Part shown: positions 5,498 to 36,173 of the stretch, one piece after another
Position numbering within the stretch: the stretch's first letter is position 1
How the letters are laid out: each line of letters begins with the position of its first letter
From: Escherichia phage vB_EcoM_G17
DNA length: 64,000 nucleotides
Direction: 5' to 3' (one strand)
Sequence record: MK327931.1
The notes under the pieces: model-generated
The model's database searches: none
Told to the model about the DNA's origin: nothing
What the model saw: only the letters and a program-made list of their open reading frames with translations
Translations under genes and position numbers: made by a program

Positions 5498-5532
5498 CAA
5501 AAAAAAGGACGAGATAACAAATCCCGTCCTTT
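5498..5532 (-). terminator. intra-array rho-independent terminator
   Basis: Hairpin AAGGACG..CGTCCTT at 5505-5531 with U-run on minus strand, between 5539..5844 and 4632..5486. Confidence 0.6.
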
Positions 5533-5538
5533 GGTTTA

Positions 5539-5844
5539 TTAGTGACTTGCCCAGCAGTAAACAGGACGTAGATTTTCCATTGGATTTACTTCAGGCTTCA
5601 GTACTGTTACACGTACTTCATATGGAGTTCCATCTGCGTGATGGAATGTTTCATAATGAATACTTTCAATAAATGTTTCGTATTCTTCTTGTGAACGTGA
5701 ACGTACTGATGATGAATATTTCTTTTTAGAATCTGCTTTAAGTGTAACACTAACTAGTTCTGATTCCTCACCTTCTTCAAGTTTGTTGAAATCGAACTCT
5801 GGTACACCTTCAAACATATCAAATTTCATTCCATTGTCTTCCAT
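5539..5844 (-). CDS. hypothetical protein
   Basis: ORF track; AAAGGA SD upstream. Confidence 0.6.
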   Translation of the reverse strand: MEDNGMKFDMFEGVPEFDFNKLEEGEESELVSVTLKADSKKKYSSSVRSRSQEEYETFIESIHYETFHHADGTPYEVRVTVLKPEVNPMENLRPVYCWASH

Positions 5845-5893
5845 TTTTAAATTCCTTTTATATAATGTTAATTAGATATTTTTAATAAGCAGA

Positions 5894-6280
5894 TTAGATT
5901 GTGTCATACTGTAGTGTTCCGTGACGGAATTTTTCAAGTCGTGCTAGAACTTCTTTTCGTTCAACAATTTCTGGAACATCTTCTTGTAGTTGATCACAAA
6001 CTTCAACAATGAAGTCCCAATCACTCTCACAACTTTGTCGTACCGCCTCAATTGTTTTCCAATCAGTACTGATATCACCATCAGCATTTTGATATACAGG
6101 CCAAACTTTTCCATAATCAGCAATGGATTTGTCATTTAGAATACGAATGGCATTGAAAATCTGACCAGTACTGAAGTGTTTTGTATTCTTCATATCTTCT
6201 AAACAGCATAGCTTTGGCTCACCTTTTACTTCAATGAGTAAAACACCACCAATTGCTTTTAGGACTGAACTTGTATTCAT
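5894..6280 (-). CDS. hypothetical protein
   Basis: ORF track; GGAGA SD upstream. Confidence 0.6.
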   Translation of the reverse strand: MNTSSVLKAIGGVLLIEVKGEPKLCCLEDMKNTKHFSTGQIFNAIRILNDKSIADYGKVWPVYQNADGDISTDWKTIEAVRQSCESDWDFIVEVCDQLQEDVPEIVERKEVLARLEKFRHGTLQYDTI

Positions 6281-6295
6281 CTATATCTCCGTTAT

Positions 6296-6350
6296 CAAAA
6301 AAAAGATGTGAACATTATATCACAAGAATCTAATATGTTCACATTATTTT
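6296..6350. terminator. bidirectional hairpin terminator
   Basis: 10-bp stem ATGTGAACAT/ATGTTCACAT at 6306-6344 flanked by A-run and T-run. Confidence 0.55.
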
Positions 6351-6352
6351 CA

Positions 6353-6646
6353 TTAGATTTTAATAATATTGTACCAGTTATCAAAATCCTCAATTGCTAG
6401 AATGAACATATTTTCATCATTGAAATCTAAAATATGTTCATTGTATAGGTAACTAATGTACTTGTTTTTGCATAGTCTAGCATTCATTAGTAACATTTCT
6501 ACTGCACGTTCATAAGAACAAGGAACAAGGTATAACTTAGTACCATCTTGGTGAATAATTTCCTCAGCACCATGTGGTATAAAACGTTCTGCTGTATGTG
6601 GAATATACGGCTTAGTTTTAAAAATAATTTTGAATTTAGTATCCAT
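6353..6646 (-). CDS. hypothetical protein
   Basis: ORF track. Confidence 0.6.
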   Translation of the reverse strand: MDTKFKIIFKTKPYIPHTAERFIPHGAEEIIHQDGTKLYLVPCSYERAVEMLLMNARLCKNKYISYLYNEHILDFNDENMFILAIEDFDNWYNIIKI

Positions 6647-6662
6647 ACCAAATCCTCCAGAT

Positions 6663-7517
6663 TTATAATGTTTCTTTTATGTTATGTAACATAGTATTAA
6701 CTATGCACATCTTACCACCTAACTTGTAGTAATATTCTAACTTATTAATAATATTACTTTTTAATATATCAAATATTTGATATTCATTTGGATCGAAACT
6801 AAGTTCGAATTGGAATGTATATAAATTGTTAAAGAGGTGAACTAATGATGCATCTGGTGATTCCATTGTAACTGTATATTTTTCACGATAACCAGTACTA
6901 ATCACTACTTCGGATATATCACCTTTCATGTATATGTCAATATTGTACATCATTGGTCTGCCTGTGGCAATATCTTTCATGCGAAAGAATGCAGTACTAC
7001 GATATACAATGCCTTCTGAAACCTGTTCTTGTATAGTGATATTTGAAACTTCACTCTCTTGGAATTTGGACTCGAATGAATGAGTGTAATTTGTTTTTTC
7101 ATTATCCGTGTGCATAGTACATGTGTATTTTCCAAAATCATCTCTAGATGTATATGATTTATCACTGCTAGTTTTATAGAACGAAACACCATTAATATGT
7201 TGTTCTTTATACATCATCGTGTCATGGGATTTGTAGTATGAACAATTAGGTGTTGAAAGAGATTCAAACTTGTTCACGTCATGACAGTAAGAAATAGAAG
7301 AATCGCTATACATTACTACATCACGAATTGCAACTTCTTTTGTAAAACCTTTTTTGACGGAAATTTGAAAGTCATTGTATGGGAAGATTGTATATCCATC
7401 GTATGCATCTGATGTACTGATACCAAATGGTGTAGTAGAATTCAGAAATTCGTTGATATGTTCAAGTACTGAATACTTTTTAAAATTAAGAAAATCTGAA
7501 ATATCTAACATATACAA
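6663..7517 (-). CDS. hypothetical protein
   Basis: ORF track; 284 aa. Confidence 0.6.
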   Translation of the reverse strand: MYMLDISDFLNFKKYSVLEHINEFLNSTTPFGISTSDAYDGYTIFPYNDFQISVKKGFTKEVAIRDVVMYSDSSISYCHDVNKFESLSTPNCSYYKSHDTMMYKEQHINGVSFYKTSSDKSYTSRDDFGKYTCTMHTDNEKTNYTHSFESKFQESEVSNITIQEQVSEGIVYRSTAFFRMKDIATGRPMMYNIDIYMKGDISEVVISTGYREKYTVTMESPDASLVHLFNNLYTFQFELSFDPNEYQIFDILKSNIINKLEYYYKLGGKMCIVNTMLHNIKETL

Positions 7518-7540
7518 TCCTCATAAATTTAGACAAAAAA

Positions 7541-7672
7541 TTAGTCGAGAATAAATCTCGACTTGTGTTTTACTTTACCATTTTTCATTTCTTTTTTACG
7601 ATCCACATGTGTCTGAGGCTTGTTAAACTCATTCATGTGTTTCTGTACGAAATTGTTTACTTTCTTAGCCAT
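7541..7672 (-). CDS. hypothetical small basic protein (43 aa)
   Basis: ATG with GGAG SD; lysine-rich; below ORF-track cutoff; 3-prime end overlaps terminator hairpin 7543-7563. Confidence 0.4.
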   Translation of the reverse strand: MAKKVNNFVQKHMNEFNKPQTHVDRKKEMKNGKVKHKSRFILD

Positions 7673-7674
7673 AC

Positions 7675-8148
7675 TTACTCCAAACTGGGATCTTTAACTG
7701 TTAGACTTTCTATGTCACTCGCATAAAGAACTACATTGGATTGATTTTCAGACACTTTAAAGTCGTGATAACTGTCTTTGACGATAAAATTATCTAATAT
7801 AAACCCTTTACTACAGCACATCATAATTTTATCATCTTTGATTGTGTAGGTGTTTTTCTTTTTACGTACTTCAGATTGTGGCGTAATACTATCGTTATTA
7901 CGAATAACACAATCAATATATTGTTCATTTGTACTCATAGGCATACCCATGATAAACGAGTTTTCAGTACTGATTGTTAGTATAAAAACGTTAGTATTTG
8001 GGTTGTGAAAAAAATCATGCATTGTCTTGCTACACAAAAATAGACATTGAATAATGTCCTTCACATTAAACATTATATCATGAACTTTGAATGCGTCCAA
8101 CTCTAAAATGTCATCAATTTTCCCATTTTCAACAGTTTTAATCTCCAT
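7675..8148 (-). CDS. hypothetical protein
   Basis: ORF track. Confidence 0.6.
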   Translation of the reverse strand: MEIKTVENGKIDDILELDAFKVHDIMFNVKDIIQCLFLCSKTMHDFFHNPNTNVFILTISTENSFIMGMPMSTNEQYIDCVIRNNDSITPQSEVRKKKNTYTIKDDKIMMCCSKGFILDNFIVKDSYHDFKVSENQSNVVLYASDIESLTVKDPSLE

Positions 8149-8190
8149 GATCTATCCTTGATCTTCTAATGCACTCCATGTGCGTTTTTA

Positions 8191-8688
8191 TTAAGTCACT
8201 GCATTATACTTCTCTATAGCATTAGTAATATTTAATATAGCTTCAGGAACCATTTCTTTATTGTATTCACGTTTTAAATTTTCCATTTTCTTAATAATTT
8301 CCAAGAAAAATGGCAAAATACATGAAGTATCTGTAAAATTACATGAGTACAAAGTACTCATTTGAAATAATTCACCTGAATCAATATTAAGAGATTTGTA
8401 TTCCTTAACAATGTTTTCGTTTGTATTGAAAATATGAAATACTGTTCCCATGTGATGAAGATATACACCATTCTCATTTTGAATATGGCATGGTGTGATT
8501 ACAATAGCAGTGTTGTCAATATTATTTACTATTGATAAACGTAGACTATGTAAACCTAAAATAACAGTACAATCACTTGAACTGCTTTGAATTTGGTCAG
8601 CAGTTTGTGTAACACTTGTAATATTTTCCCCATCAAGACAACTCTTGATTTTATCAAATGAATTTTTCATTGATTTAGTTAGATACAT
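8191..8688 (-). CDS. hypothetical protein, FamA paralog
   Basis: FamA core GELFQMSTLY. Confidence 0.65.
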   Translation of the reverse strand: MYLTKSMKNSFDKIKSCLDGENITSVTQTADQIQSSSSDCTVILGLHSLRLSIVNNIDNTAIVITPCHIQNENGVYLHHMGTVFHIFNTNENIVKEYKSLNIDSGELFQMSTLYSCNFTDTSCILPFFLEIIKKMENLKREYNKEMVPEAILNITNAIEKYNAVT

Positions 8689-9092
8689 TTATGAACACCT
8701 TCGAAATATTTGATTAATGATTTTATCATATCGCTACTAATGCCATGTAAGTCAACACCTAAACACTCGTATTGAAAAAAATCAATATCCTCCAGTGTGT
8801 TTAGATCAATTTCCACCTTATCATGACCCAACGAATTCATAATAACGTTTTTATCATTAATTGTCAAGAAAGTTTTTTTATCTGAACCTAAAAAGATTTT
8901 TACATGTTTTTTTGGCATTACATCATAAGATAAAGATTGTGAACCATAAATGTATATGCCTTCCATTGAACCAATATCTATAAAATATAGACGAATCCCT
9001 TTGTGGTATTTTGACTCCTTAGTGATCGCCTCTATTAGTTCATCTGTGGTTGTTAACCTTGTTTCTTTCTTCTCTAAATTGCTCAAATGCAT
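8679..9092 (-). CDS. hypothetical protein, FamA paralog
   Basis: FamA core IDFFQYECLG. Confidence 0.6.
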   Translation of the reverse strand: MHLSNLEKKETRLTTTDELIEAITKESKYHKGIRLYFIDIGSMEGIYIYGSQSLSYDVMPKKHVKIFLGSDKKTFLTINDKNVIMNSLGHDKVEIDLNTLEDIDFFQYECLGVDLHGISSDMIKSLIKYFEGVHKCI

Positions 9093-9513
9093 AAAATAAT
9101 ACCTTGATCATTTGTAATGTTTCTGACATTACATCAGCAGAAAATTGAACATCAGTGTATTTTACCATAGTACTTTGAGTAAAGAAAGTAGCTTCAATAT
9201 CTTCAAGGTCAAATGGTTCATCAAATAAATTAGTACTGAACATATCAGTTTTTTTCTTATAAGTCAACATAAACTTAGCACTGTATCTCAATACAATTTC
9301 ATCTTTACTTACTAAAATTCGTGCAATGTTCTGTCTACCCAGTGTTGTAATGTTAACATTAAACGTATTCTTTCGTGCCTCAACAATATCAACGAAATAA
9401 CCATCACCTTGGTAAACGTTATGACGAACTTCTAATCCTTGTTGAACTGTATTGAACAGTGCGTCCTGGATAAAATAATTTGCAGTATCGATGTTTCCTA
9501 AAATATCTAACAT
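9040..9513 (-). CDS. hypothetical protein, FamA paralog
   Basis: FamA variant core ATFFTQSTMV; start approximate (overlaps neighbour). Confidence 0.55.
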   Translation of the reverse strand: MLDILGNIDTANYFIQDALFNTVQQGLEVRHNVYQGDGYFVDIVEARKNTFNVNITTLGRQNIARILVSKDEIVLRYSAKFMLTYKKKTDMFSTNLFDEPFDLEDIEATFFTQSTMVKYTDVQFSADVMSETLQMIKVLFYAFEQFREERNKVNNHR

Positions 9514-10043
9514 AACTTCTCCTTTATAGCTGTCATATTTAGAAGAAATTCAGTAAGCAATTCCTCCGTAACATGCTCTGTATACCAGAATATCACAATA
9601 TCTTTTGAAAGTCGTGTATTCATAAAAATATCTACTAACTCTTTGTAGAACTCTAGTGTTTCGAGATTTGTGAGAATTAACGAGTACTGAAAGAGTAATT
9701 CTTCCGTTAGATTAAATTCTGGATAAAGTAAATCATTGAACTCATGTGATGCAGTTTGAACTTTAATTTCTTTGAAGTTATTGGTTATACAACCGGAATA
9801 AATATTTCGGTGCAACTCTCTGTACAACGCAGCATAATCTATGAATTTTGCTTTAGGGTTAAAATCAAGAACACTTTCACCTTTATATGACAATCGGTGG
9901 AACGCCGAGAACATAGTCACTTCCCACGGTTGCTTAATATCTAGCTCAGTAATATCAATATTATTGGACAGAAGAACCGTAAAAATCTCACCAATCTTTA
10001 ATAGTAACTTAGTACGTGCCAGTGCTACCATCGGGTCAGTCAT
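9507..10043 (-). CDS. hypothetical protein, FamA paralog
   Basis: FamA core EELLFQYSLI. Confidence 0.65.
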   Translation of the reverse strand: MTDPMVALARTKLLLKIGEIFTVLLSNNIDITELDIKQPWEVTMFSAFHRLSYKGESVLDFNPKAKFIDYAALYRELHRNIYSGCITNNFKEIKVQTASHEFNDLLYPEFNLTEELLFQYSLILTNLETLEFYKELVDIFMNTRLSKDIVIFWYTEHVTEELLTEFLLNMTAIKEKLC

Positions 10044-10456
10044 TATACACCTTCATATTCATCAAGAAAATCTTCGATAATCATTTCAGCTTCATCCATA
10101 TGCATAGCATCAACTTCAATGATGCGAACTTTAGATGCATCCCAAATCATAAAGCTAGGAACATTATCAGGCTCGTAGTCATTTTTGTACTGAACAGCAT
10201 CATAACCTTGAGCAGTGCAATTCTCAATAAGTGAACGCCACTCATCATCACTGCCTAAATCTTCACACAGAAGCACGTTATCAACATCAACTTCTAAGGT
10301 ATGCAAGTATACTGTACATGCGTCTACTACGTTCAGTGGGCTTCTCAGCTTGCGTAATGCAGCTTCCAAAGCACTGTGTTTACCTCCCATATGAAGACCA
10401 CCATACGGGATATAAAAGTTATCAATTTTTACAGTACTCGCATGATACAGTTTCAT
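10043..10456 (-). CDS. hypothetical protein (not FamA)
   Basis: ORF track; acidic C-terminus; no family motif. Confidence 0.6.
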   Translation of the reverse strand: MKLYHASTVKIDNFYIPYGGLHMGGKHSALEAALRKLRSPLNVVDACTVYLHTLEVDVDNVLLCEDLGSDDEWRSLIENCTAQGYDAVQYKNDYEPDNVPSFMIWDASKVRIIEVDAMHMDEAEMIIEDFLDEYEGV

Positions 10457-10465
10457 ATTTCATTC

Positions 10466-11050
10466 CTATTTCAGTACTTTAGTCAATGCTTTCACAGCGG
10501 TTTCGAGTTGAGCATAGTCGTTAATTGTAAGGTAATGAATACCATGTGCCTTCATTTCAGCATCTATTTTACTATATAAATCAAACATGTCAAGGATATG
10601 ATTGTATGCATATGAAGTATTTGAAACACACAATTCTTGGAACAAACGTTCTTCCAAGTCATTCACAACTTCTCCATGAATGTCAAGTACTACACCATCT
10701 TTGTAAGTGTAGTACTCTTCACTCCACTCTTCAGAAAGTCGGAACAGTAACGGATTCCCGCCGAACACTTCCATGTCATAGGAATTTATCTCACTAAGTA
10801 GTGTTTCACCTGGTTCTGGTGTGAAGTCAAAATATGCGAGTGTTGTACCATCATAGTCCTTGAGTGATATACCAGTATGATTTAAGGTTACTTCACCATA
10901 ATTATTATTCTTGAACTTGATTTTGATATTAATCTCAATGTATTTTATTGTCTCATCATCACTGAAATTGTAATCAACTTTATACTTTTTCCAAAGAAGT
11001 TTGATATCTTTGAAGTACTTTAATTTACTTTCAATTTCTTTAAAGTCCAT
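10466..11050 (-). CDS. hypothetical protein, FamA paralog
   Basis: FamA core EERLFQELCV. Confidence 0.6.
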   Translation of the reverse strand: MDFKEIESKLKYFKDIKLLWKKYKVDYNFSDDETIKYIEINIKIKFKNNNYGEVTLNHTGISLKDYDGTTLAYFDFTPEPGETLLSEINSYDMEVFGGNPLLFRLSEEWSEEYYTYKDGVVLDIHGEVVNDLEERLFQELCVSNTSYAYNHILDMFDLYSKIDAEMKAHGIHYLTINDYAQLETAVKALTKVLK

Positions 11051-11642
11051 CTGGAACCACCATTTCTTGAATGTGCTTACATTTTATATTTGCCATATTG
11101 GTATGTAATATAATGCTGTGTTTACGCAATGATTTTACTTTGTAGCACTCATTGAGTACTGAAATAATTCCCCATAACTCTTCTACACTAATAGTGATAG
11201 GTTCACTTGTACTCAGTTGCATCAGTGCTGCTTGAACATCATCTTTGTTATTAATAGTGAACTGGATTCCTCTTTTGAGAATTTTAGTTTTTGGATTGTA
11301 CTCAGCTAATACATCACCTTCTGGATAACCCTCATGAAGTAATAATGTTGTTTCAAAATCACCGCAGTTGAAGTTAATTTCATCATAATCAGGTACACAA
11401 ATGTTCCCTTCCCCGTACTCATTAGGTTCAGATTCTAGTGTTAAAATACGCTGAGTCTCATTGCTCAGGATGATAGAATCATTCCAGTACTGGGTAGTGA
11501 ATGCTCTACGTTTCTTTTGAAAGCACATACTCGACATTGAACCATACTTCTTGTATATGGACTTCTTGAACTCAATAGCAGCAGGAGCCACCTTGATAAC
11601 TTCACGAATTAAGTCAATAGCTTCTTGATAACTTTTTCTCAT
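11040..11642 (-). CDS. hypothetical protein
   Basis: ORF track; no clear FamA core. Confidence 0.55.
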   Translation of the reverse strand: MRKSYQEAIDLIREVIKVAPAAIEFKKSIYKKYGSMSSMCFQKKRRAFTTQYWNDSIILSNETQRILTLESEPNEYGEGNICVPDYDEINFNCGDFETTLLLHEGYPEGDVLAEYNPKTKILKRGIQFTINNKDDVQAALMQLSTSEPITISVEELWGIISVLNECYKVKSLRKHSIILHTNMANIKCKHIQEMVVPDGL

Positions 11643-12190: not shown

Positions 12191-12251
12191 AAAATTCTCC
12201 TTTAGGACAATGTATCATACAAAAATACCAGAGTCAACCCCTGGTACGAAT

Positions 12252-15463: not shown

Positions 15464-15490
15464 AGATTCCTCCAACTCTAGTTAAAATCA

Positions 15491-15519: not shown

Positions 15520-15528
15520 GCCATAAAC

Positions 15529-27510: not shown

Positions 27511-27582
27511 AAAATCTCCTTCAGATTAGTACTGAATTTGTACAGAATATTAGAACTGTATACAGCCTCTGTATCTGTATCC

Positions 27583-28685: not shown

Positions 28686-28846
28686 TGGTGTACTGTGAAC
28701 TCAGCACCACTAATAGGTAATCTATATTGTAAGCACGATTTCCTCGTTGACTAGCACGGCTGGAATAAAGAATATTATCCACATATGTATTGAACTGATC
28801 TTCAAATAACTCTTTCATCAGCATTATACCATCACATAATCATACA

Positions 28847-29753: not shown

Positions 29754-30265
29754 AAACCTATTTCCTCTAAATCTTTGACAAATGTATCATAATCCGATAA
29801 TGACAAAAATATGTCTGTACTGATGTTTTGACGTAATGTATTAAACAAATTATGTACCTGTAATAAATCAGGTGCATAAATCAGGGATTGCTGGAAATAC
29901 GATTCTTCTGTATCTAATATATCCCTGCACTCAATTTCACGAACTCGTTGGTATATTGAATTTAATAATACATTTTCATCTTTGAGCATTGGAAGGTATC
30001 GGATGTACATGTGCTCCATCAACTCATCCTGGATTGAACCCCTGAACTGCAACACGTATTCAAAACACATCACTACATCTTGTAGGTAATTGGCACTGTA
30101 ATTATTGCTGTAAACAATCTTATGACTTCTGAACTCATCATCATTTCTGAACCAATTGTCACCTACTTTGGTGTACTTATGACTAAGCTTCCCATCCTCC
30201 AACGCTCGAATGAACTTCATAATGTTAATTGCAAAATCATATGAATGATGCTTGTGTTGATGCAT
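29750..30265 (-). CDS. hypothetical protein, FamA paralog
   Basis: FamA core EESYFQQSLIY. Confidence 0.65.
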   Translation of the reverse strand: MHQHKHHSYDFAINIMKFIRALEDGKLSHKYTKVGDNWFRNDDEFRSHKIVYSNNYSANYLQDVVMCFEYVLQFRGSIQDELMEHMYIRYLPMLKDENVLLNSIYQRVREIECRDILDTEESYFQQSLIYAPDLLQVHNLFNTLRQNISTDIFLSLSDYDTFVKDLEEIGL

Positions 30266-30273
30266 TTTTTACC

Positions 30274-30468
30274 TCAATTCTGTCCGAAAAAATAACCAAA
30301 ATGTTTAAAGCAAGAAAGCATTACTATGTTCATCACTCTATCATCAAATTCATCTTGTGTTTCTGCACATAATGTTTCACAGATATTCAAATGTAATAAT
30401 TCAAGCTGGAAACTGTCGGTGAACCAATCAAACTTACGGTATTTTTGTTTAACATCAACTGTAAGCAT
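30274..30468 (-). CDS. hypothetical small protein
   Basis: ORF track; 64 aa. Confidence 0.45.
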   Translation of the reverse strand: MLTVDVKQKYRKFDWFTDSFQLELLHLNICETLCAETQDEFDDRVMNIVMLSCFKHFGYFFGQN

Positions 30469-30469
30469 A

Positions 30470-31093
30470 CTATATATCCAACCCTTTTACAACATCTACG
30501 AAATGTTCAAACACTTCTTTTGAAAAATAACCACCTTCACAAAAAAGCATACTAAACGGTGGCAGCATGTCCGATAACTCTTTAGCTAAATTGATTTCTG
30601 CTCTTAACTCTTGAACATCAATGATATCATGTACTAAAGATAATTGAAACATGAATGCATCTACATCTTCATTCATTTCTGAATTGTAATATAACTCTTC
30701 AGGGAATTTGTCGGTTTCGTAATAATAAAAAACTTTATTGTTGAACACACCACTAATAGGAACATCATTTTCATCTTTCTTTGAAATGTTTGTTTCCCAT
30801 GACTCTATATTATTAGGAACAAAAAAATCATAGGCTGATTTTGAACCCTGTACTGAATCCAACTTTATTCCATAATATTCCGTATCCATGTATTTCTGCT
30901 GTAATGTAATACCACGTGTACTGACATTCACTTGGAATATATCATCTTTATCTGGAACACTAAATGGAATACATAACACTGAATTCTCAGGGTATTTGGC
31001 AATGAATGCATCCAGCACTTTATTAAGCACCGGAATGGCAATTTTACTGTACTGCATCAAATCATACATTTTAATTCTGGTCATATCATTCAC
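30470..31093 (-). CDS. hypothetical protein, FamA paralog
   Basis: FamA core DAFMFQLSLVH. Confidence 0.65.
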   Translation of the reverse strand: MNDMTRIKMYDLMQYSKIAIPVLNKVLDAFIAKYPENSVLCIPFSVPDKDDIFQVNVSTRGITLQQKYMDTEYYGIKLDSVQGSKSAYDFFVPNNIESWETNISKKDENDVPISGVFNNKVFYYYETDKFPEELYYNSEMNEDVDAFMFQLSLVHDIIDVQELRAEINLAKELSDMLPPFSMLFCEGGYFSKEVFEHFVDVVKGLDI

Positions 31094-31625
31094 CTGTGTA
31101 TGTTTTCACCCTTAGCGATTCAAAATCCCATACATCACTGATTGTACCATTGTGCCTGTAATCATAATATTCTACTAATACATTATACAATAACTTCAAC
31201 GATACAAATTCATGATTCCACGGAGCTTTATTGTCATGAACACATTTGGTGATATAAGGTATAATATATAAACTAAACAACACTAATGGTGAATGTATAC
31301 ATTGCATTTGAAAATATTCTTCTTCTTGCATACAATGTTCAGGAATAATTAGATCATAATGTGTCTCAAATAAATGTAAACCTATTGTGGTTTTTTTCGT
31401 ATCACATGCGTACCATATTGTACTATCCGAAATAAATGGAATGATACCATTATTGTTTGCAATGTACATCATATGGTAAGAGCGATTTGTCTTGTTAAAT
31501 ATCTCGATACTTTCGATATTACTACAAATCATGTATTCAAGGCAATCAATGATCTTATCTTTAAATGTACCAATTTCATTGAATGACATTGCTTTCTGTA
31601 CTTTTGATACTGTTGTACTGCTCAT
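31086..31625 (-). CDS. hypothetical protein, FamA paralog
   Basis: FamA core EEEYFQMQCIH. Confidence 0.65.
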   Translation of the reverse strand: MSSTTVSKVQKAMSFNEIGTFKDKIIDCLEYMICSNIESIEIFNKTNRSYHMMYIANNNGIIPFISDSTIWYACDTKKTTIGLHLFETHYDLIIPEHCMQEEEYFQMQCIHSPLVLFSLYIIPYITKCVHDNKAPWNHEFVSLKLLYNVLVEYYDYRHNGTISDVWDFESLRVKTYTGE

Positions 31626-32164
31626 ATGTTCTCCTTAAAAAAATCCAAATACTCTTCATTGAAAGCATATGTATCATCTTTTATGTTATGCACCACATAA
31701 TCATAAAGAGCTATGAATGCAGGGATTATGATCTTACATGATTTATTATTGTATTTGTACTGCTCCAAATCAACGGTGTTCAATTTAGCAATAAGCATAG
31801 CAGCAAAGATATCTTCATGGCGGTGTACTGTGCTGTACTGAAAATACTCATCCTCTCCAATATCGGGATGATATAACGGTATAACCAAATTATTACGAAT
31901 TGACATTTTATATTTTTGTAATGCAGCTAAATGCATGAACCACAATCTATCTTCATGGAAAGATGGAAAAATAATTTTGTCTGTGCTAATAAAAATTTCT
32001 TCATTTCGATTATTTGTCACAAGAGGTGCATACATTTTAATTTTTGCAGATTTAATAATTAAATTAAAAATATAATGAATCTTATGAACTGCACTTGATG
32101 CATCTTCGTATGTACTTGGGATTATGAAACTCACTATATGTTCTCCTTTAAAATGAATACACAT
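31622..32164 (-). CDS. hypothetical protein, FamA paralog
   Basis: FamA core EDEYFQYSTVH; true start possibly GTG a few codons in. Confidence 0.6.
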   Translation of the reverse strand: MCIHFKGEHIVSFIIPSTYEDASSAVHKIHYIFNLIIKSAKIKMYAPLVTNNRNEEIFISTDKIIFPSFHEDRLWFMHLAALQKYKMSIRNNLVIPLYHPDIGEDEYFQYSTVHRHEDIFAAMLIAKLNTVDLEQYKYNNKSCKIIIPAFIALYDYVVHNIKDDTYAFNEEYLDFFKENI

Positions 32165-32191
32165 GATAACAGCTTTGGTCTTCTATGTCAA
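32163..32191 (-). promoter_or_regulatory. internal sigma70-like promoter
   Basis: -35 TTGACA 32186-32191, 17-bp spacer, -10 TATCAT 32163-32168. Confidence 0.4.
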
Positions 32192-32200
32192 TACCAAAAC

Positions 32201-32239
32201 GAAAAAAGCCCATATCTTACGATACAGGCGTTATGGGCA
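32201..32239 (-). terminator. intra-array rho-independent terminator
   Basis: Stem GCCCATA/TATGGGC about 32208-32238 with U-run on minus strand; overlaps stop of 32217..32723. Confidence 0.5.
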
Positions 32240-32723
32240 TGTTGATTTGAATTTCATTGTACAAATCATCAATATATAGACATGAAAAAAACACACTATC
32301 TTGTACTATATTGTTGTGATAAAGCATTTTAAATACTACATAAAAAAATAAATCAATATCATCGTGGACTAAATTCTGCTGGAACCACCACTCGTCTGTT
32401 AAATCTTGTGCATTAAAATCATCAGGAACTTCAATGAACGACATATCACAATCTTCTTTGTACTCAAACCACATGTCGTCATTCGGATAACGTTCATGCT
32501 TCTCTGGGTAACAATTGCTGGGATTAAATGTTAAAATATTAAACCCCGTAGAGCAACGTTCTTTATTTAAAAATGTATTATTCCATACCTGATATTTTTC
32601 ACCAACATCAAGCTCTTCTGTTACTGATTTTATTGCACATAATGTACTGTATATTGTTTCTATCTTGTGAACATATTTAAATGCAGCATCTAAGCTGAAC
32701 TCTAAATCATACATGTACTGCAT
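32217..32723 (-). CDS. hypothetical protein, FamA paralog
   Basis: FamA core DEWWFQQNLVH. Confidence 0.65.
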   Translation of the reverse strand: MQYMYDLEFSLDAAFKYVHKIETIYSTLCAIKSVTEELDVGEKYQVWNNTFLNKERCSTGFNILTFNPSNCYPEKHERYPNDDMWFEYKEDCDMSFIEVPDDFNAQDLTDEWWFQQNLVHDDIDLFFYVVFKMLYHNNIVQDSVFFSCLYIDDLYNEIQINMPITPVS

Positions 32724-33043
32724 AAAATTACCTCAACTAAAGCAAGAACTGTATTAAATTCAACTATACTTGTAATTCCTTGAAGGTACATGTACTTTGC
32801 TACTACATATTTCTGTACTAAATTATAATTATTAAATTCCTCAAAATTGTAATTTAGAACAAAATCTGTACTCAAAAATATCTTATGCATCTCTAATGCA
32901 CTTTGATAATACGCGTACAACTCACGGATATCAATACTGGTTAAATTATATTGTTCATATCTATGATACGGGATGGCTTCAATTTCAATACTATAAAACC
33001 ATTCTCTTAACTTATTAATATCAAATGTATTATTCAGCTTCAT
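32702..33043 (-). CDS. hypothetical protein
   Basis: ORF track; no family core. Confidence 0.5.
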   Translation of the reverse strand: MKLNNTFDINKLREWFYSIEIEAIPYHRYEQYNLTSIDIRELYAYYQSALEMHKIFLSTDFVLNYNFEEFNNYNLVQKYVVAKYMYLQGITSIVEFNTVLALVEVILCSTCMI

Positions 33044-33596
33044 AACTCAATACCTCCATTAAACACTCATACACACCATCAATCGCATAAGCACAAAAAT
33101 TGAAATTAATTTTGTGATTCTTGTGTAATGGACTATTGTGTACTGTACTCATTATGACATTATAAAATAACAAACGCACTGGTACAAGCATTGAACCTTG
33201 GAAAAATTCTTCCTCTGATTTATATGTATTGTACTCTATTGTTTTGTTCGTTTCTTTATCATATGTTACCATTACTAATGGGGAATTTTTATTATACCAT
33301 GCGTACTCTAAATCATTCTTTCCAATAACAGCACCAGGTGCGAAATCCAAAAGACCAATAACACTACGGGCATTTGGTATATCTGGTGTATTGAATCGTT
33401 TATCAAAATGACTCGTGCACGCAATATATGTATTGTACTTCGATGGAATAATACCAATACATTTGTGGAAATGACGCTTGTGATATTTCTGGGCATTATA
33501 TAAGGATGCAACAATACAAGCTAACTTTTGTCCCATAAGGATTGCATTAGCGTAGGTGTACTGAATTTCATTGCTGGTACGGTACTTCGAGGTCAT
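33030..33596 (-). CDS. hypothetical protein, FamA paralog
   Basis: FamA core EEEFFQGSMLV. Confidence 0.65.
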   Translation of the reverse strand: MTSKYRTSNEIQYTYANAILMGQKLACIVASLYNAQKYHKRHFHKCIGIIPSKYNTYIACTSHFDKRFNTPDIPNARSVIGLLDFAPGAVIGKNDLEYAWYNKNSPLVMVTYDKETNKTIEYNTYKSEEEFFQGSMLVPVRLLFYNVIMSTVHNSPLHKNHKINFNFCAYAIDGVYECLMEVLSYEAE

Positions 33597-33879
33597 AATA
33601 TTTCCTTTGCCATATCATGGGCTTAAAATCAATAACAGCTTTCTGTATCTTTTTTAATAATAAGACATCATAACCACCCGTGTCAATCACTAATTGCTGT
33701 TGGAACAATTCTTCATCGGATAATGTATTGAAATCTACAAAATAATCTGTAACTATCGAATCATTTAAATGTGCCATGTACCAACCTGAACTTCTTGAAT
33801 AAATCAAATTCCACCCATCGTCATCATCTTCTAATTCAACATAAATCATATCTGGGGTATACATCATTTTATACTTCAT
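33568..33879 (-). CDS. hypothetical protein, FamA paralog
   Basis: FamA core DEELFQQQLVI. Confidence 0.6.
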   Translation of the reverse strand: MKYKMMYTPDMIYVELEDDDDGWNLIYSRSSGWYMAHLNDSIVTDYFVDFNTLSDEELFQQQLVIDTGGYDVLLLKKIQKAVIDFKPMIWQRKYYDLEVPYQQ

Positions 33880-34417
33880 AACTATATCCTTGCATTAATA
33901 AATCATAAACTACATGGACTAAATTTAATTGAATATAAAATTTTAAACCTTTAATTAATGAATTCAAATGCATTGTACTGAATAACATTAGATACATCAT
34001 CTCATGCGGTTTTGTGATTAATGATTTTTGAAATACGCCAGCTTCATCATAAGGGTCTATGAACTGAAATTTGTCTTCATCATAATTTGTATTGGAATGC
34101 TGATATATAAAATAATCATCATTGGTATTGTACCACAAATATCCTTCGAATCCTGTACTAACATCTTTGGTCAATGGGGATGCTGATACTGGATTTGAAC
34201 TGATTAATGCACCTACATCAACAATCCCCGTTGTATCATATTCGATTTCAACATCAATATCAATGTATTTCCTTGCGATATCTGCGTTTATGGACAAATA
34301 TAAACTACCACCTGTCCTCTGACTCAGGATTCCATCTATATGCGATATAGGATGGTTGTTATTGAGGATAAGCATTATTGTACTTATCTTGTGTGCTAAT
34401 AACTCTATCTCATTCAT
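33869..34417 (-). CDS. hypothetical protein, FamA paralog
   Basis: FamA core EAGVFQKSLIT. Confidence 0.6.
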   Translation of the reverse strand: MNEIELLAHKISTIMLILNNNHPISHIDGILSQRTGGSLYLSINADIARKYIDIDVEIEYDTTGIVDVGALISSNPVSASPLTKDVSTGFEGYLWYNTNDDYFIYQHSNTNYDEDKFQFIDPYDEAGVFQKSLITKPHEMMYLMLFSTMHLNSLIKGLKFYIQLNLVHVVYDLLMQGYSYEV

Positions 34418-34617
34418 AATTTACCTATCGATGGATACCTAGGATTTGTAGGATGTAAAATCCTGTCCTGTACTGAAAGGTGCTCAAATGTAATTAAACT
34501 CAAATAATAATCGTAATTATCAATACCACCCTTCAAATGTATATTGTAATACATCTTAATACTATCTAATAATGAATCCTGTAATGCATTTAATGTTATC
34601 GTATTAATCTTTTGCAT
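34414..34617 (-). CDS. hypothetical small protein
   Basis: ORF track; ATGA coupling. Confidence 0.5.
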   Translation of the reverse strand: MQKINTITLNALQDSLLDSIKMYYNIHLKGGIDNYDYYLSLITFEHLSVQDRILHPTNPRYPSIGKL

Positions 34618-34765
34618 TAATGTTCTTCTCTTAAAAATCGTTTGATAGCATAATCTAAATAAAATTCATAACACATGCTATCTCTGTTCTTTATCCATAT
34701 TTTGTAATCGGATTTTATATTACGCAACAAATAATTTGTATTAATTGTGTAATAATCTAATCGCC

Positions 34766-35158
34766 CTAATCTTTCCATTTAATAGGATACTCCTTTCCTT
34801 GTACTATATATGACAAAATCCATCCGTAATGAATAGGATGATTTTTGTCTGAATCAGGAATAAAATATAAAGCTGTACTTGGATTATGACTGAATAAATC
34901 TTTATTGTCAAATGTAAAATGTGATAATATAATTTTCCTTGCACTTGGACGAATAACATTCTTAACACTGAACTCTGAACCTTTGTATTTCTCCGATAAT
35001 TCAAATAATGCATCTGTAATTAAATCACTGATCTCTTGGATTACAAAATTCTGATAAAATGCATTAATCTCTTTTAACTCTGTATACAATTCACTTCTGG
35101 TATTCAAAAGAAATATTACTTTTTTAAGATCCTGAACTATTTCTGGATTCATATTCAT
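34766..35158 (-). CDS. hypothetical protein
   Basis: ORF track. Confidence 0.55.
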   Translation of the reverse strand: MNMNPEIVQDLKKVIFLLNTRSELYTELKEINAFYQNFVIQEISDLITDALFELSEKYKGSEFSVKNVIRPSARKIILSHFTFDNKDLFSHNPSTALYFIPDSDKNHPIHYGWILSYIVQGKEYPIKWKD

Positions 35159-35390
35159 TTATCTCATTCTGTAACTTAAGCATCAAAATTTGCATATTAA
35201 TTTTTTGTAAAAGGTGCTTGATAAATTTCTGTGCCATTTCTTCTTGTTCTTTTGTACCAAGATAAAATAACAGATTAAATTCTGATAATCGCAAAGAAAA
35301 ATCTTCATCACCACCCTTTAAACAAAAATCCCTGTACTTTGTAGCGTACAAATATTGGTTTACCTTTTTATAATACCCTGTGTTTTGCAT
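35124..35390 (-). CDS. hypothetical small protein, FamB paralog
   Basis: FamB core YLGTKEQEEM. Confidence 0.6.
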   Translation of the reverse strand: MQNTGYYKKVNQYLYATKYRDFCLKGGDEDFSLRLSEFNLLFYLGTKEQEEMAQKFIKHLLQKINMQILMLKLQNEINEYESRNSSGS

Positions 35391-35578
35391 ACTATCTCCG
35401 TTCGCAACGAATTTATATAATAATGAACAAATTGTTCTTGTGAACGTGTTCCAAGAAAAATAAACATATCAAACTCTGTTGTTTTTAAATTCAATGCATC
35501 TTTTGTAAAATTCCTGTTGAATTCCCTGTACTTTTGGGTCTTCCATTCTTGATTAATTGTCTTGTATATCGATTTCAA
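35360..35578 (-). CDS. hypothetical small protein, FamB paralog
   Basis: FamB core FLGTRSQEQF. Confidence 0.6.
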   Translation of the reverse strand: MKSIYKTINQEWKTQKYREFNRNFTKDALNLKTTEFDMFIFLGTRSQEQFVHYYINSLRTEIVCKTQGIIKR

Positions 35579-35879
35579 TGATTCTCCCTGATGTACCTTG
35601 TATTAGCTTATCATACATATCGAGCATCACTTTTTGAATACTAATTAGTACTGGCATCGTGCAAATATCAATGTCGTATACTAAGCTGTACTGGAATAAT
35701 TCATCTTCCTGCATTTGTACTAAATTAGGTAAAGGATAATTGTCTGCCTCTTCATCCTGGTACTTGAAATGCATAACACCATCCTTTTTGTACAAAAGAA
35801 TGTCAATATCACCTAACTCATCAGCATAACCAAAAATACATATACTCGATGTTTTTGCTATATTAAATTTCATCTCCAC
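35553..35879 (-). CDS. hypothetical protein, FamA paralog
   Basis: FamA core EDELFQYSLVY. Confidence 0.65.
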   Translation of the reverse strand: MEMKFNIAKTSSICIFGYADELGDIDILLYKKDGVMHFKYQDEEADNYPLPNLVQMQEDELFQYSLVYDIDICTMPVLISIQKVMLDMYDKLIQGTSGRIIEIDIQDN

Positions 35880-36115
35880 CTCTCTCCGTCAGCACAAGAG
35901 TACTGGTACGTTGTCGTTAGGGTAGGGACCATGTTTGTAATGGGCATATTATTAACAATAACGGTAACAGGCATAAGAATCGTCTCTACTCTACTCTGTC
36001 CTGTCCTTGTACAATTCATCTTCTGCATTTCATCTGAATCCATGAAATACAATACAAATGGTGCAATCCCAAGAACAATACACAAGACGATAAGGAAATT
36101 TAAAAAATTTAACAT
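35870..36115 (-). CDS. hypothetical small membrane protein
   Basis: ORF track; hydrophobic N-terminal segment LNFLIVLCIVLGIAPFVLYF. Confidence 0.5.
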   Translation of the reverse strand: MLNFLNFLIVLCIVLGIAPFVLYFMDSDEMQKMNCTRTGQSRVETILMPVTVIVNNMPITNMVPTLTTTYQYSCADGERWR

Positions 36116-36144
36116 AATTTTTACCCTATGATTAACGTTAGTGT

Positions 36145-36173
36145 ACTATATCAGTAATGAAAAGTACTGTCAA
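36145..36173 (-). promoter_or_regulatory. internal sigma70-like promoter
   Basis: -35 TTGACA 36168-36173, 17-bp spacer, -10 TATAGT 36145-36150. Confidence 0.4.

Follow-up and report, generated by a model that had tools for sequence, protein, structure and literature searches.

The window, a stretch of 64,000 nucleotides from Escherichia phage vB_EcoM_G17 (MK327931.1), is 100% identical to Escherichia phage Sharanji (Asteriusvirus, 121Q/PBECO4 group), and its minus strand carries every gene between 1 and 42 kb. The genes of this array are packed stop-on-start, with stop and start codons overlapping, and intergenic DNA makes up about 3% (3.2% of 40 kb). GenBank records of Asteriusvirus annotate coding sequences only across the array. 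The few true gaps are where the candidate transcription signals are located (Table 1). Nine of these had been listed in a sequence-only reading of the same DNA, and all nine are present where it placed them, on the minus (coding) strand; the resulting set of boundaries is real, although incomplete, as the terminator at 12225-12247 was missed.

The sites were compared in EC.P1, PBECO4, SP27, Turkey5 and A4. EC.P1 is a relative with 82% overall identity to Sharanji, and Turkey5 and A4 represent two further lineages whose DNA can hardly be aligned to Sharanji.

Table 1. Candidate transcription signals and predicted units of the array (z, hairpin z-score)
Feature	Position	Strand	Description
Promoter P36173	36145-36173	minus	TTGACA-17-TGaTATAGT, 11/12
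Terminator T32229	32208-32229	minus	9-bp stem, then T6; z -3.4
Promoter P32191	32163-32191	minus	TTGACA-17-TGtTATCAT, 11/12
Promoter P19394	19365-19394	minus	TTGACA-18-TGaTATAAT, 12/12
46-nt hairpin	19331-19376	minus	-21.2 kcal/mol; z -8.9
Terminator T15552	15533-15552	minus	8-bp stem, then TTTTTGTGTTT; z -4.2
Promoter P15519	15491-15519	minus	TTTACA-17-TGtTATACT, 10/12
Cassette T12247	12209-12247	minus	9-bp hairpin 12225-12247, then T5; z -3.9; not listed previously
Hairpin T7563	7543-7563	minus	8-bp stem, AA, then T6; z -4.5
Composite site	6306-6344	minus	hairpin ATGTGAACAT...ATGTTCACAT, then C+T8, enclosing promoter; z -3.4
Promoter P6341 (within 6306-6344)	-35 6341-6336, -10 6319-6314	minus	TGAACA-16-TGaTATAAT
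Terminator T5532	5504-5532	minus	12-bp stem, then T8; -16 kcal/mol; z -5.0
Promoter-like sequence and hairpin	4574-4635	minus	GAGACA-16-TGaTATAAT, directly followed by hairpin 4574-4603 (T4603) and T7; z -5.2; outside range read previously
Terminator	1137-1161	minus	after gene 1167-1853; z -3.9; outside range read previously
Predicted unit	36173 to 32208	minus	11 ORFs
Predicted unit	32191 to 15533	minus	40 ORFs; P19394 boosting last 8
Predicted unit	15519 to 12225	minus	6 ORFs
Predicted unit	12190 to 7543	minus	10 ORFs, via read-through
Predicted unit	7517 to 6353	minus	2 ORFs, via read-through
Predicted unit	6341 to 5504	minus	2 ORFs
Predicted unit	gene 4632-5486	minus	via read-through

Promoters and hairpins in the gaps

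The four listed promoters had been described as weak. However, they match the consensus at 10-12 of 12 positions and carry the TG of an extended -10 element, and by sequence they therefore look strong. Each promoter has a Shine-Dalgarno sequence and a start codon at the correct distance, and is located immediately after a hairpin, within one, or at a site that has none. P36173 has no terminator ahead of it, is followed about 25 nt downstream by a ribosome-binding site and ATG 36115, and has a spacer (gtact...tactg) similar to those of early promoters further upstream, at 45116 and 52186; EC.P1, PBECO4 and SP27 have the same two hexamers, and Turkey5 and A4 retain both. P32191 begins 16 nt past the T run of T32229, and the gene behind it most likely starts at GTG 32134, after AAGGAG, rather than at ATG 32164. 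The -35 box of P19394 overlaps the TGA stop of gene 19391-19945, with no terminator at the site, and this promoter is conserved in all five relatives. P15519 is followed by GGAGG and ATG 15463; its -10 box is TATAAT in EC.P1, PBECO4, SP27 and Turkey5, and its counterpart in A4 is TTGACA-17-TAGAAT. In P32191 and P6341, the hexamers are preserved despite turnover of the spacer: EC.P1 and Turkey5 retain TTGACA-17-TACAAT around a wholly different spacer at the former, and at the latter (followed by GGAG and ATG 6280) the -10 box and TG are invariant in EC.P1, Turkey5 and A4, with TGGACA as the -35 box and a diverged spacer.

The total number of sigma70-like matches is not above chance (121 vs 125 in shuffles, and 111 vs 121), and the argument for promoters therefore rests on the extended -10 subclass, on position and on conservation. 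The placement of this subclass is non-random, with seven of the ten coding-strand matches of at least 10/12 falling in the gaps (binomial p ~1e-8) and no such matches on the plus strand. Both hexamers are also kept in relatives in intragenic matches at 2549, 8099, 10593 and 33686, and the true set of start sites may thus be larger. Upstream of the array, the 44-64 kb region contains many 12/12 promoters, and 102 matches were counted at 40-60 kb vs 71 +/- 10 in shuffles. Terminator-like sites are likewise enriched, with 16 found in 1-20 kb vs 6.0 +/- 2.3 expected.

Five of the hairpins have the full form of an intrinsic terminator, with a G+C-containing stem of 8-12 bp and 5-8 T directly after it. 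Hairpin z-scores range from -3.4 to -5.2 (-3.4 to -5.0 at the five listed sites), and a T run follows each. The compact G+C-containing hairpins with a T run on the minus strand all lie 0-8 nt past a stop codon. Overlap with the preceding stop, previously described as frequent, is found in three of the five listed hairpins, but not in T5532 or the 6344 hairpin. The loop of T32229 contains the TAA of gene 32217-32723, the stem base of T15552 overlaps the TAA of gene 15551-16117, and the last base of T7563 is the first base of the TAA of a previously unlisted 43-aa ORF (7541-7672, Pfam DUF7230). T5532 lies 6 nt past the stop of gene 5539-5844, and hairpin 4574-4603 closes the unit holding gene 4632-5486.

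Comparison with the relatives shows these structures to be conserved. In hairpins 1161, 5532, 7563, 15552 and 32229, all of the approximately 94 stem nucleotides are identical between Sharanji and EC.P1, and the four substitutions, including those in T5532, are all in loops. T32229 is identical in EC.P1, as is the 1137-1161 terminator despite diverged flanks. The T runs are conserved together with the stems. In Turkey5 and A4, hairpins of similar energy are found at the homologous gaps, via compensatory pairs or a replaced stem, with the 6344 hairpin as the exception. T15552 and T7563 retain identical stems in EC.P1, Turkey5 and A4 and vary only in the loop, T32229 has a compensatory A-U to G-C change in Turkey5 (-12.8 vs -15.3 kcal/mol), T5532 has compensatory and wobble changes in both lineages (-16.6, -15.0 and -16.9 kcal/mol), and hairpin 4574-4603 has a different stem in both with pairing maintained. 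The 1137-1161 terminator is also kept in Turkey5.

The site at 6306-6344 had been listed as a terminator; the hairpin is present, but this description is incomplete, as the hairpin wraps a promoter. Its 10-bp stem is A/T-rich and its loop is large, and the terminator scan missed it because the loop exceeds 8 nt. The hairpin is kept in Turkey5 with wobble pairs (-10.6 kcal/mol) and is weak in A4 (-4.5 kcal/mol). T7563, with AA before its T run, is predicted to terminate or attenuate weakly, and both T7563 and the A/T-rich 6344 hairpin, which decays in A4, may terminate poorly.

Proposed transcription units and competing readings

It is likely that the array consists of a few units cut by intrinsic terminators and sigma70 promoters, arranged as compact cassettes in an early region. 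The location of the signals in true gaps, their spacing to ribosome-binding sites and starts, and their conservation with compensatory changes bear out the earlier proposal that the array is divided. The region would correspond to the "hyperplastic" part of a T4-related jumbo phage, which is early and rich in ORFans, and would be transcribed leftward along the minus strand by host RNA polymerase with sigma70. The promoter-dense 44-64 kb zone would send transcripts into the array, where the few cassettes would re-set transcription: incoming transcripts would be stopped or attenuated at T32229, T15552, T12247, T7563, the 6344 hairpin, T5532 and then T4603, and new transcripts would start from P36173, P32191, P19394, P15519 and P6341, near-consensus extended -10 promoters 25-35 nt before a ribosome-binding site. 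At T5532, T7563 and T12247, the next gene begins 10-30 nt on (ATG 5486 for T5532) with no good promoter between (at T12247, a weak one at most), and the genes behind these sites would therefore have to depend on read-through. No transcript mapping for any Asteriusvirus was found in the literature searched, and we therefore infer cassette activity, and likewise terminator efficiency and timing, from the sequence. The phage also encodes its own RpoD-like sigma factor (PMC11895373), which counts against a firm assignment of the array sites to the sigma70 holoenzyme.

It is possible, if doubtful, that the cassettes are mainly recombination sites, mobile regulatory modules for insertion, deletion and swapping of ORFans and paralogs, with a secondary role in transcription. 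The loop of T12247 holds TTGACT, followed after a 17-nt spacer by TGaTACATT, a weak promoter match (9/12 plus TG). The cassette is missing from EC.P1 through a clean 50-nt indel, with the genes abutting there, and it is dispensable in that clade, which also counts against the main transcriptional reading. Turkey5 has at this position a cassette with an unrelated stem, again around TTGACT, and A4 has a full version with the same core and TGcTATTAT at L007 14664-14736, elsewhere in its array, for which positional homology to T12247 is not established. The core also resembles the repeated form of cassette found upstream of the array in the 44-64 kb region (at 44810, 47562, 50831 and 54119). Turkey5 and A4 have additional cassettes at other positions, A4 has a further two genes, of which one encodes an HNH endonuclease, immediately behind the 7563 hairpin, a one-gene deletion in 121Q ends exactly at 36174, beside P36173, and the T32229-P32191 cassette of A4 is almost identical to that of Sharanji despite the divergence of the genomes. 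Exactly such a role has been reported for similar elements of T4-like phages, the PeSLs described below (PMC2839356, PMC4122927). However, most breakpoints of gene gain and loss lie outside the cassettes, between tandem paralogs or at ordinary gene junctions (e.g., 20263-20619, and 36174-36523 between paralogs g36579 and g36889), and the array cassettes share little sequence besides the hexamers and would therefore offer little homology for exchange. A recombination role would in any case supplement the transcriptional role, not replace it.

The sequence-only reading had suggested graded or differential expression of paralog subsets. In this version, weak promoters and terminators inside the array would set different levels for different subsets, with dosage graded by paralog group, which now seems unlikely. 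Unit lengths are very different and some terminators have no promoter after them, which makes it plausible that expression declines in steps along the array; the three terminators without a good promoter behind them are consistent with graded expression as such. However, paralog subfamilies are not separated by the unit boundaries. A single 16.6-kb unit holds the two recent tandem paralog clusters (23031-26417 and 26427-28045), and differential expression of paralog subsets therefore has no basis in the sequence. Strong matches to the promoter consensus, the fact that most paralogs have just the motif in common, and the presence of the same cassettes around the non-family genes at 4632-8148 also argue against this version. 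Taken together, the earlier observations are partly confirmed and their interpretation is partly supported.

It is quite improbable that the hairpins are instead mainly RNA-level elements (protectors of processed 3' ends, nuclease sites or translational operators) in an array transcribed throughout. The 19331-19376 hairpin lacks a T run and is clearly directed at a ribosome-binding site, small conserved hairpins without a T run occur in other gaps (e.g., 8149-8190), the T run of T7563 is interrupted, and the genes directly behind T5532 and T7563 have no promoter, so that RNA polymerase must pass both at some rate. Against this stand the full intrinsic-terminator form of five hairpins, the conservation of T runs along with stems, and the promoter immediately behind three hairpins, which fits the stopping of incoming transcription. 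Finally, chance matches in A+T-rich DNA, as the shuffled total and the near-consensus matches within genes might suggest, are hardly credible as an explanation for the sites given the strand- and gap-specific enrichment and the hairpin z-scores, and are contradicted by the comparative data, in which stems stay unchanged at an overall identity of 82% and two further lineages show compensatory changes.

Relation to known early regions

A layout of promoters and terminators of this type is not new, and is already well known from T4-like phages. The T4 early units are transcribed by host sigma70 polymerase from several strong early promoters on one strand, with genes behind terminators reached only via read-through. 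The array resembles these immediate-early and delayed-early units in its sigma70-type promoters on one strand and its predicted read-through genes behind terminators. There is no evidence here for the T4 modifiers (Alt/Mod, AsiA/MotA), and no MotA-box enrichment was found in the gaps. In keeping with an early region, the T4-type late motif TATAAATA has no occurrences in all 64 kb, and a motif search of the window found ATAAATA three times vs ~54 expected.

The closest parallel is provided by the promoter-early stem-loops (PeSLs) of RB49/phi1, T4/PST and KVP40/nt-1 (Arbiol et al. 2010, PMC2839356; Comeau et al. 2014, PMC4122927). PeSLs, found in the hyperplastic regions of T4-like phages, combine a strong sigma70 promoter with a stem-loop upstream of the promoter, between its boxes or over the -10 box, and have been shown to promote and terminate transcription (PMC2839356; PMC4122927). 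On sequence grounds, the array cassettes appear to be PeSL-like early promoter/terminator cassettes of this known kind. They share the same three stem-loop positions, a 3' end that carries the Shine-Dalgarno sequence and start codon, the location between ORFans in variable early regions, and presence or absence that varies among close relatives. In contrast to PeSLs, which are copies of one ~100-bp repeat, the array cassettes are individually different in sequence and sparse (seven in 31 kb; one unit runs to 40 ORFs). Their promoters are of the extended -10 type, mostly without an A-rich UP element, and the phage is an Asteriusvirus jumbo phage outside the T4 subfamily.

Similar signals have been described within the same broad phage group. 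In the relative CBB, RpoD-like promoters are predicted to be clustered where the short, early ORFs lie (PMC5259590). In PA5oct, a more distant relative, sigma70-like promoters and terminators coincide with the ends of transcripts mapped by RNA-seq, and its growth is sensitive to rifampicin (PMC7318152). As in the array, the sigma70-like promoters predicted in CBB and GAP32 and those supported by RNA-seq in PA5oct are concentrated among short hypothetical ORFs taken as early, and intrinsic terminators are many. Their sites, unlike those described here, are listed genome-wide in other genera, and neither the CBB/GAP32 paper (PMC5259590) nor the PA5oct paper (PMC7318152) maps the sites of the 121Q/Sharanji array.

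The hairpin over a ribosome-binding site at P19394

P19394 lies partly inside the 19331-19376 hairpin, which pairs the -10 region of the promoter with the translation start of gene 18855-19331 (its ribosome-binding site and the A of its AUG). The inner stem is different in each of three lineages, with nearly constant energies (-21.2, -21.7 and -21.5 kcal/mol), and double compensatory changes are found in 4 of 14 consensus pairs. The 5' arm would exist only in read-through transcripts from upstream, in which the hairpin would mask the ribosome-binding site; RNA started at P19394 would lack this arm, and the gene would therefore be translated mainly from its own promoter. A hairpin likewise masks the ribosome-binding site of the T4 genes e, soc, 49 and I-TevI in read-through RNA, and the site is free in RNA that starts from a promoter within the hairpin; the 19331-19376 hairpin similarly stretches between the -10 box of P19394 and the ribosome-binding site with its AUG. 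However, the internal promoter of the T4 genes is a late promoter, which results in a temporal switch, whereas P19394 is of the sigma70 type and belongs to an early array, and the effect would therefore be to uncouple gene 18855-19331 from upstream transcripts.

Promoter and terminator signals in the gaps of the array

Between 1 and 42 kb every ORF lies on the minus strand, and stops overlap starts nearly throughout, so that a non-overlapping gene map leaves only ~17 true gaps (~1.27 kb, 3.2% of 40 kb). A sequence-only reading had placed five terminators and four promoters here and had proposed that they split the array into sub-operons. When the minus strand was read and folded at each of these places, all of the listed sites proved to be present; they are genuine and not randomly placed, and the proposed interpretation is partly right. 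The sites are compiled below, where T denotes a terminator-like hairpin and P a promoter.

Sites and predicted transcription units of the early array, with folding energies in the order Sharanji / Turkey5 / A4
Feature	Position	Strand	Form	Energy (kcal/mol)	Differences among lineages
P36173	36173-36145	-	TTGACA-17-TGaTATAGT, 11/12		
P32191	32191-32163	-	TTGACA-17-TGtTATCAT, 11/12		
P19394	19394-19365	-	TTGACA-18-TGaTATAAT, 12/12		
P15519	15519-15491	-	TTTACA-17-TGtTATACT, 10/12		
P6341	inside hairpin 6306-6344	-	TGAACA-16-TGaTATAAT; GGAG and ATG downstream		
T32229	32208-32229	-	9-bp stem, T6 tail, z -3.4	-12.8 / -15.3 / 	A-U to G-C in Turkey5; A4 cassette nearly identical to Sharanji's
T15552	15533-15552	-	8-bp stem, tail TTTTTGTGTTT, z -4.2	about -11 / -12.8 / -12.5	stem same, loop varies
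T12247	12225-12247	-	9-bp stem, T5, z -3.9; in 61-nt gap after gene 12252-12833; not in the sequence-only reading		
T7563	7543-7563	-	8-bp stem, AA then T6, z -4.5	-12.0 / -12.0 / -11.5	stem same, loop varies
T6344	6306-6344	-	10-bp A/T-rich stem, large loop, C+T8 tail, z -3.4	-12.1 / -10.6 / -4.5	A4 hairpin decayed, promoter kept
T5532	5504-5532	-	12-bp stem, T8 tail, about -16.6 to -16.8 kcal/mol, z -5.0	-16.6 / -15.0 / -16.9	A-U to C-G plus wobble pairs
T4603 and promoter-like site	4574-4635	-	just below the range of the sequence-only reading	-13.5 / -15.1 / -12.2	stems differ
T1161	1137-1161	-	terminator; just below the same range		
Predicted unit	P36173 to T32229	-	11 ORFs		
Predicted unit	P32191 to T15552	-	40 ORFs, 16.6 kb; P19394 adds to last 8		
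Predicted unit	P15519 to T12247	-	6 ORFs		
Predicted unit	12190 to T7563	-	10 ORFs		
Predicted unit	7517 to 6353	-	2 ORFs		
Predicted unit	P6341 to T5532	-	2 ORFs		
Predicted unit	gene 4632-5486, up to T4603	-	1 ORF		

The form of an intrinsic terminator, a G+C-containing stem-loop followed by a U run, is found at T5532, T12247, T15552 and T32229, as well as at the two out-of-range sites T1161 and T4603; T6344 and T7563 fit it loosely, given the stem and loop of the former and the AA ahead of the T run in the latter. All of the terminator hairpins lie 0-8 nt past a stop codon or overlap one. Actual overlap, which had been described as frequent, holds for T15552, T32229 (TAA in the loop) and T7563 (the stop of a previously unlisted ORF, 7541-7672), and does not hold for T5532 or T6344. 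Terminator-like sites number 16 at 1-20 kb, where 6.0 +/- 2.3 are expected; the near-expected count at 20-40 kb (8 vs 6.4) fits the single terminator, T32229, in that stretch. A separate scan for hairpins with T runs recovered these gap sites and a few weaker intragenic ones. Within gene 24526-25014 there is also a strong hairpin (24906-24950, minus strand, -18.6 kcal/mol) followed by T6, which may act as an attenuator within the gene or may have arisen by chance.

The promoters had been called weak, a description that their sequences contradict: P36173, P32191, P19394, P15519 and P6341 all have the extended -10 form, with near-consensus hexamers (10-12/12), a 16-18 bp spacer and TGn. Because the total of sigma70-like matches does not exceed that of shuffled sequences (121 vs 125.5 +/- 11.9; 111 vs 121.2 +/- 12.1), these promoters would be indefensible on consensus alone. 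The TGn subclass behaves differently: of its 10 matches of at least 10/12 on the coding strand in 40 kb, seven fall within gaps (binomial p about 1e-8), and the opposite strand has none. Each extended -10 promoter has a ribosome-binding site and a start codon 25-35 nt downstream. Upstream of the -35 box, where PeSL cassettes of T4-like phages (see below) carry an A+T-rich, UP-like stretch, the sequence is T-rich at P32191 and P15519, where a terminator tail lies ahead, and is ordinary coding sequence at P19394 and P36173. For the gene behind P32191 the most likely start is GTG 32134, preceded by AAGGAG: the alternative ATG 32164 overlaps the -10 box, and in the relative EC.P1 an ATG stands in place of this GTG. 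Middle promoters of the CBB type (TGAAACG), MotA boxes (TGCTTtA) and late motifs (TATAAATA) were sought in the gaps and none were found.

Four sigma70-like matches on the minus strand are intragenic (2521-2549, which scores 12/12 at 2549; 8072-8099; 10566-10593; 33657-33686). Relatives preserve both hexamers of each and differ in the spacers, with a chance probability of about 0.09 per site per lineage, and on this weak evidence the four are possible internal promoters and could be additional starts.

Upstream of the array, early promoter cassettes of a stereotyped form recur on the minus strand at 44-64 kb, roughly 40 in all and one per 0.3-1 kb. They have an A-rich upstream stretch and read aaaAGTAC-TTGCAA or TTGACA, a 16-bp spacer, TATAAT, gtTTTACATC and then a ribosome-binding site. 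In many of them a G/C-rich stem-loop (GGGGAGAA...TTCTCCCC) lies between the last two elements. A second type places TTGACT in a 12-bp hairpin followed by TGcTATTAT (44810, 47562, 50831, 54119). Promoter matches at 40-60 kb number 102 vs 71.4 +/- 9.7 expected, and nine are 12/12. The 44-64 kb stretch would thus be a promoter-dense early zone whose transcripts head toward the array. Neither strand of the 64-kb window contains the T4-type late motif TATAAATA, and ATAAATA occurs three times (roughly 54 expected), a marked avoidance of the late core that would suit a region from which late starts are excluded. The late core is also rare at 100-150 kb of Sharanji, where a single minus-strand TATAAATA lies right behind a terminator-like hairpin (about 28991 in that segment).

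Conservation of the cassettes among related phages

Over window positions 5000-25000 the identity is 100% with Escherichia phage Sharanji (OR545507.1, 350 kb) and 94-99% with 121Q, PBECO4, SP27 and phAPEC6; a second clade, which includes EC.P1, stands at ~82%. Sharanji and EC.P1 were compared over 20 kb (82.5% identity) at five hairpins, T1161, T5532, T7563, T15552 and T32229. The ~94 stem nucleotides are all unchanged, vs ~17 changes expected, and the four substitutions present are all in loops. P19394 and P36173 keep 12/12 hexamer positions in EC.P1, and at P15519 the -10 box is improved to TATAAT. Elsewhere the hexamers are kept while the spacer drifts: at P32191, TTGACA-17-TACAAT is retained around a wholly different spacer, and at P6341, TGaTATAAT is kept with a diverged spacer and a -35 box of TGGACA.

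In a 4.8-kb test stretch, only 2-4% can be aligned between Sharanji and two further lineages, Turkey5 and A4, which keep gene order and have gaps at homologous places. Pairing in the terminators is maintained among three to four lineages through compensatory and loop-only changes, although the independent events are few. Together with the placement statistics, these comparisons contradict a chance origin of the signals. The site at 6306-6344 had been listed as a terminator, and the hairpin does exist; it is not a plain terminator, as it encloses P6341, and since in A4 the hairpin has decayed and the promoter persists, the conserved element here is the promoter. RNA begun at P6341 would start in or after the 3' arm, so that the hairpin would form solely in incoming RNA.

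T12247 is cleanly deleted in the EC.P1 clade, where the flanking genes abut, and its position in Turkey5 holds a cassette with an unrelated stem; a similar cassette is present in A4 (14664-14736 of the A4 sequence). All three enclose TTGACT within the hairpin, the design of the repeated cassettes at 44810, 47562, 50831 and 54119, and A4 has the full TGcTATTAT -10 box. Other indels that touch cassettes are at 36174 and after T7563, where A4 has two extra genes, one of them encoding an HNH endonuclease; the remaining indels lie away from cassettes. These breakpoints come from a few clean indels only, because paralogs confuse the BLAST colinear chain past 20 kb.

Several smaller observations concern the gaps and their neighbors. 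The minus-strand gaps 5845-5893 and 8149-8190 contain blocks conserved in Turkey5 and A4 (CTAATTAACATTATATAAAAAGGAATTTAAAATG, and GCACAnGGAGTGC...GATCAAGGATAGATCATGG), with no recognizable promoter or terminator in either gap. ORF 7541-7672 (minus strand), whose stop adjoins the T7563 hairpin, encodes a basic protein of 43 amino acids, MAKKVNNFVQKHMNEFNKPQTHVDRKKEMKNGKVKHKSRFILD, assigned to Pfam DUF7230 (E = 4e-17) and to phrog_1359. The ORF is conserved, with synonymous substitutions, and is an annotated CDS in EC.P1, SP27, 121Q, Turkey5 and A4. A role as an ArfA-like ribosome-rescue peptide made from truncated mRNA was considered and rejected: the Pfam family is DUF7230 rather than ArfA, a PDB search at E up to 10 gave no match, and the stop precedes the T run.

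Predicted transcription units and known early cassettes

In the proposed scheme, host sigma70 polymerase would transcribe the array early, and the cassettes would stop or attenuate incoming RNA and then restart transcription. The genes after T12247, T7563 and T5532 are without a good promoter of their own, so either these terminators would be leaky or the genes behind them silent. The suggestion of graded expression therefore survives to the extent that genes so placed follow these three sites. Its companion, that subsets of paralogs are expressed differentially, finds no support in the sequence. The motif [ST][ED]EE[LYF]FQxS is common to ~45 proteins encoded between 8191 and 36889, and the genes at 4.6-8.1 kb are outside this family; most paralogs share the motif alone, and the recent tandem clusters (23031-26417 and 26427-28045) both fall within one predicted unit, so that the boundaries do not follow paralog subfamilies. 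The FQxS proteins match no Pfam family and belong to PHROG families of unknown function. Their motif resembles TEV and 3C-type protease cleavage sites (SEEMYFQGS in gene 18364-18858, TEEGYFQGS in gene 23031-23480), a likeness that may be only a structural motif.

Database records of the 121Q/PBECO4/Sharanji group give the array genes solely as 'hypothetical protein' CDS. The literature searched held no Asteriusvirus transcriptome (RNA-seq or Term-seq); the phAPEC6 paper has no RNA-seq, and the Sharanji paper says nothing about promoters or terminators. The units proposed here, drawn from sequence, offer a concrete predicted transcription map for ~70 unannotated early genes of this group and indicate to those working on the FQxS paralogs which genes would share a transcript. 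The genes starting at 36115, 32134, 19331, 15463 and 6280 each appear to have their own strong host-type promoter, and the cassettes are natural boundaries for cloning or deletions.

The closest known elements are the promoter-early stem-loops (PeSLs) of T4-like phages. In these, a strong sigma70-type early promoter is combined with a stem-loop of terminator or attenuator function, located upstream of the promoter, between its boxes or over the -10 box; the cassettes end in an SD sequence and ATG, occur among ORFans of hyperplastic regions and take part in indels (PMC2839356; PMC4122927). The array cassettes likewise sit among ORFans, and a promoter, stem-loop and SD/start are combined in a short gap at T32229/P32191, T15552/P15519, T6344/P6341, T12247 and the -10 hairpin of P19394. 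In contrast, P36173 is without a stem-loop, and the array cassettes share only hexamers and are not copies of a common ~100-bp repeat. Only P36173, whose spacer pattern is common to two 44-64 kb promoters, and T12247 resemble the repeated cassettes of that zone. Given the lack of a shared repeat and the mixed link to indels, the array cassettes are termed PeSL-like: they would work like PeSLs without being members of the sequence family. Elements of this kind have been described before; what is new are the individual sites, which lack annotation. For the relative CBB, RpoD-like promoters were predicted to cluster in the early region of short ORFs, together with 74 terminators elsewhere or there (PMC5259590); for PA5oct, another relative, sigma70-like promoters and terminators have RNA-seq support (PMC7318152). 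The general understanding of phage gene regulation is unchanged; the PeSL-type design would reach the Asteriusvirus jumbo phages, outside the T4 subfamily.

The strongest structure is not a terminator. It is a 46-nt hairpin at 19331-19376 (-21.2 kcal/mol, z -8.9) in which the -10 box region of P19394 is paired with two elements of gene 18855-19331, its AAAGGG ribosome-binding site and the A of its AUG. Its equivalents in Turkey5 and A4 fold at -21.7 and -21.5 kcal/mol with different inner stems, and double compensatory changes occur in 4 of the 14 consensus pairs across the three lineages. The SD and start codon are thus paired with sequence that precedes the point at which an internal promoter would initiate. 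RNA begun ~7 nt past the -10 box of P19394 would not contain the 5' arm, which would be present in read-through RNA from P32191; for that reason gene 18855-19331 may be translated mainly from the RNA of its own promoter. In T4, the ribosome-binding sites of genes e and soc are masked by a promoter-containing hairpin, an arrangement that this one resembles.

The AGTACT palindrome and conserved non-coding stretches

AGTACT is the most over-represented hexamer of the window, with 251 copies (about 21 expected from composition) that are densest at 44-64 kb. The commonest 8-mer, CAGTACTG, is built on the same core (63 vs <1 expected), and the wider context is palindromic as well (TT-CAGTACTG-AA). 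Intragenic copies fall in the three codon frames 42/25/27, and 47/62 sites (76%) are kept in EC.P1 at 82% identity, vs 39% for hexamers in general. Most of the early promoters listed at 44-64 kb have AGTACT next to one of their boxes (-10 or -35), and aaaaAGTAC stands there upstream of the -35 box. The motif is also enriched at genome positions 100-150 kb (88 vs 17 expected). No copy lies within 28244-35553 and hardly any at about 39-43 kb; the 28.2-35.5 kb block is free of it in four relatives too. One guess is that a dimeric phage protein binds this palindrome. That CAGTACTG marks DNA bound by a factor of the phage's own, which would turn off or obstruct early transcription as a second, undescribed control layer partitioning the array, seems improbable; if it were, AGTACT-free blocks would be expressed differently from their neighbors, independent of the terminators. 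A literature search for CAGTACTG returned only primer sequences.

A search of the whole window against Rfam at the gathering threshold gave nothing meaningful, and neither did ARAGORN. Two non-coding stretches of the minus strand are well preserved. The first, ~310 nt at 4263-4573 behind hairpin 4574-4603, is the best conserved DNA of its neighborhood, with 94.8% identity in EC.P1 and 89.5% in Turkey5, where the flanking genes are barely alignable. It has a raised G+C content and a predicted fold of -77 kcal/mol, and being nearly invariant it leaves no detectable covariation. It contains no tRNA or tmRNA, has no Rfam match at E up to 1, and is a candidate non-coding RNA or DNA element. The second, ~200 nt at 28046-28243, lies at the lower edge of the AGTACT-free block and contains a G8 run, CCCCGCCGCCG and a hairpin (TTGAC...GTCAA) with A7 behind it; here too there was no Rfam match at E up to 1. 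It is 94-97% identical in four relatives, recurs in large part in A4 and is weakly conserved in Turkey5. Finally, an apparent 162-nt gap at 35391-35552 (minus strand) holds a broken small ORF of a second paralog family (..FLGTRSQEQFVHYY..) that is otherwise arrayed at 37-43 kb, and this is probably a decayed paralog copy.
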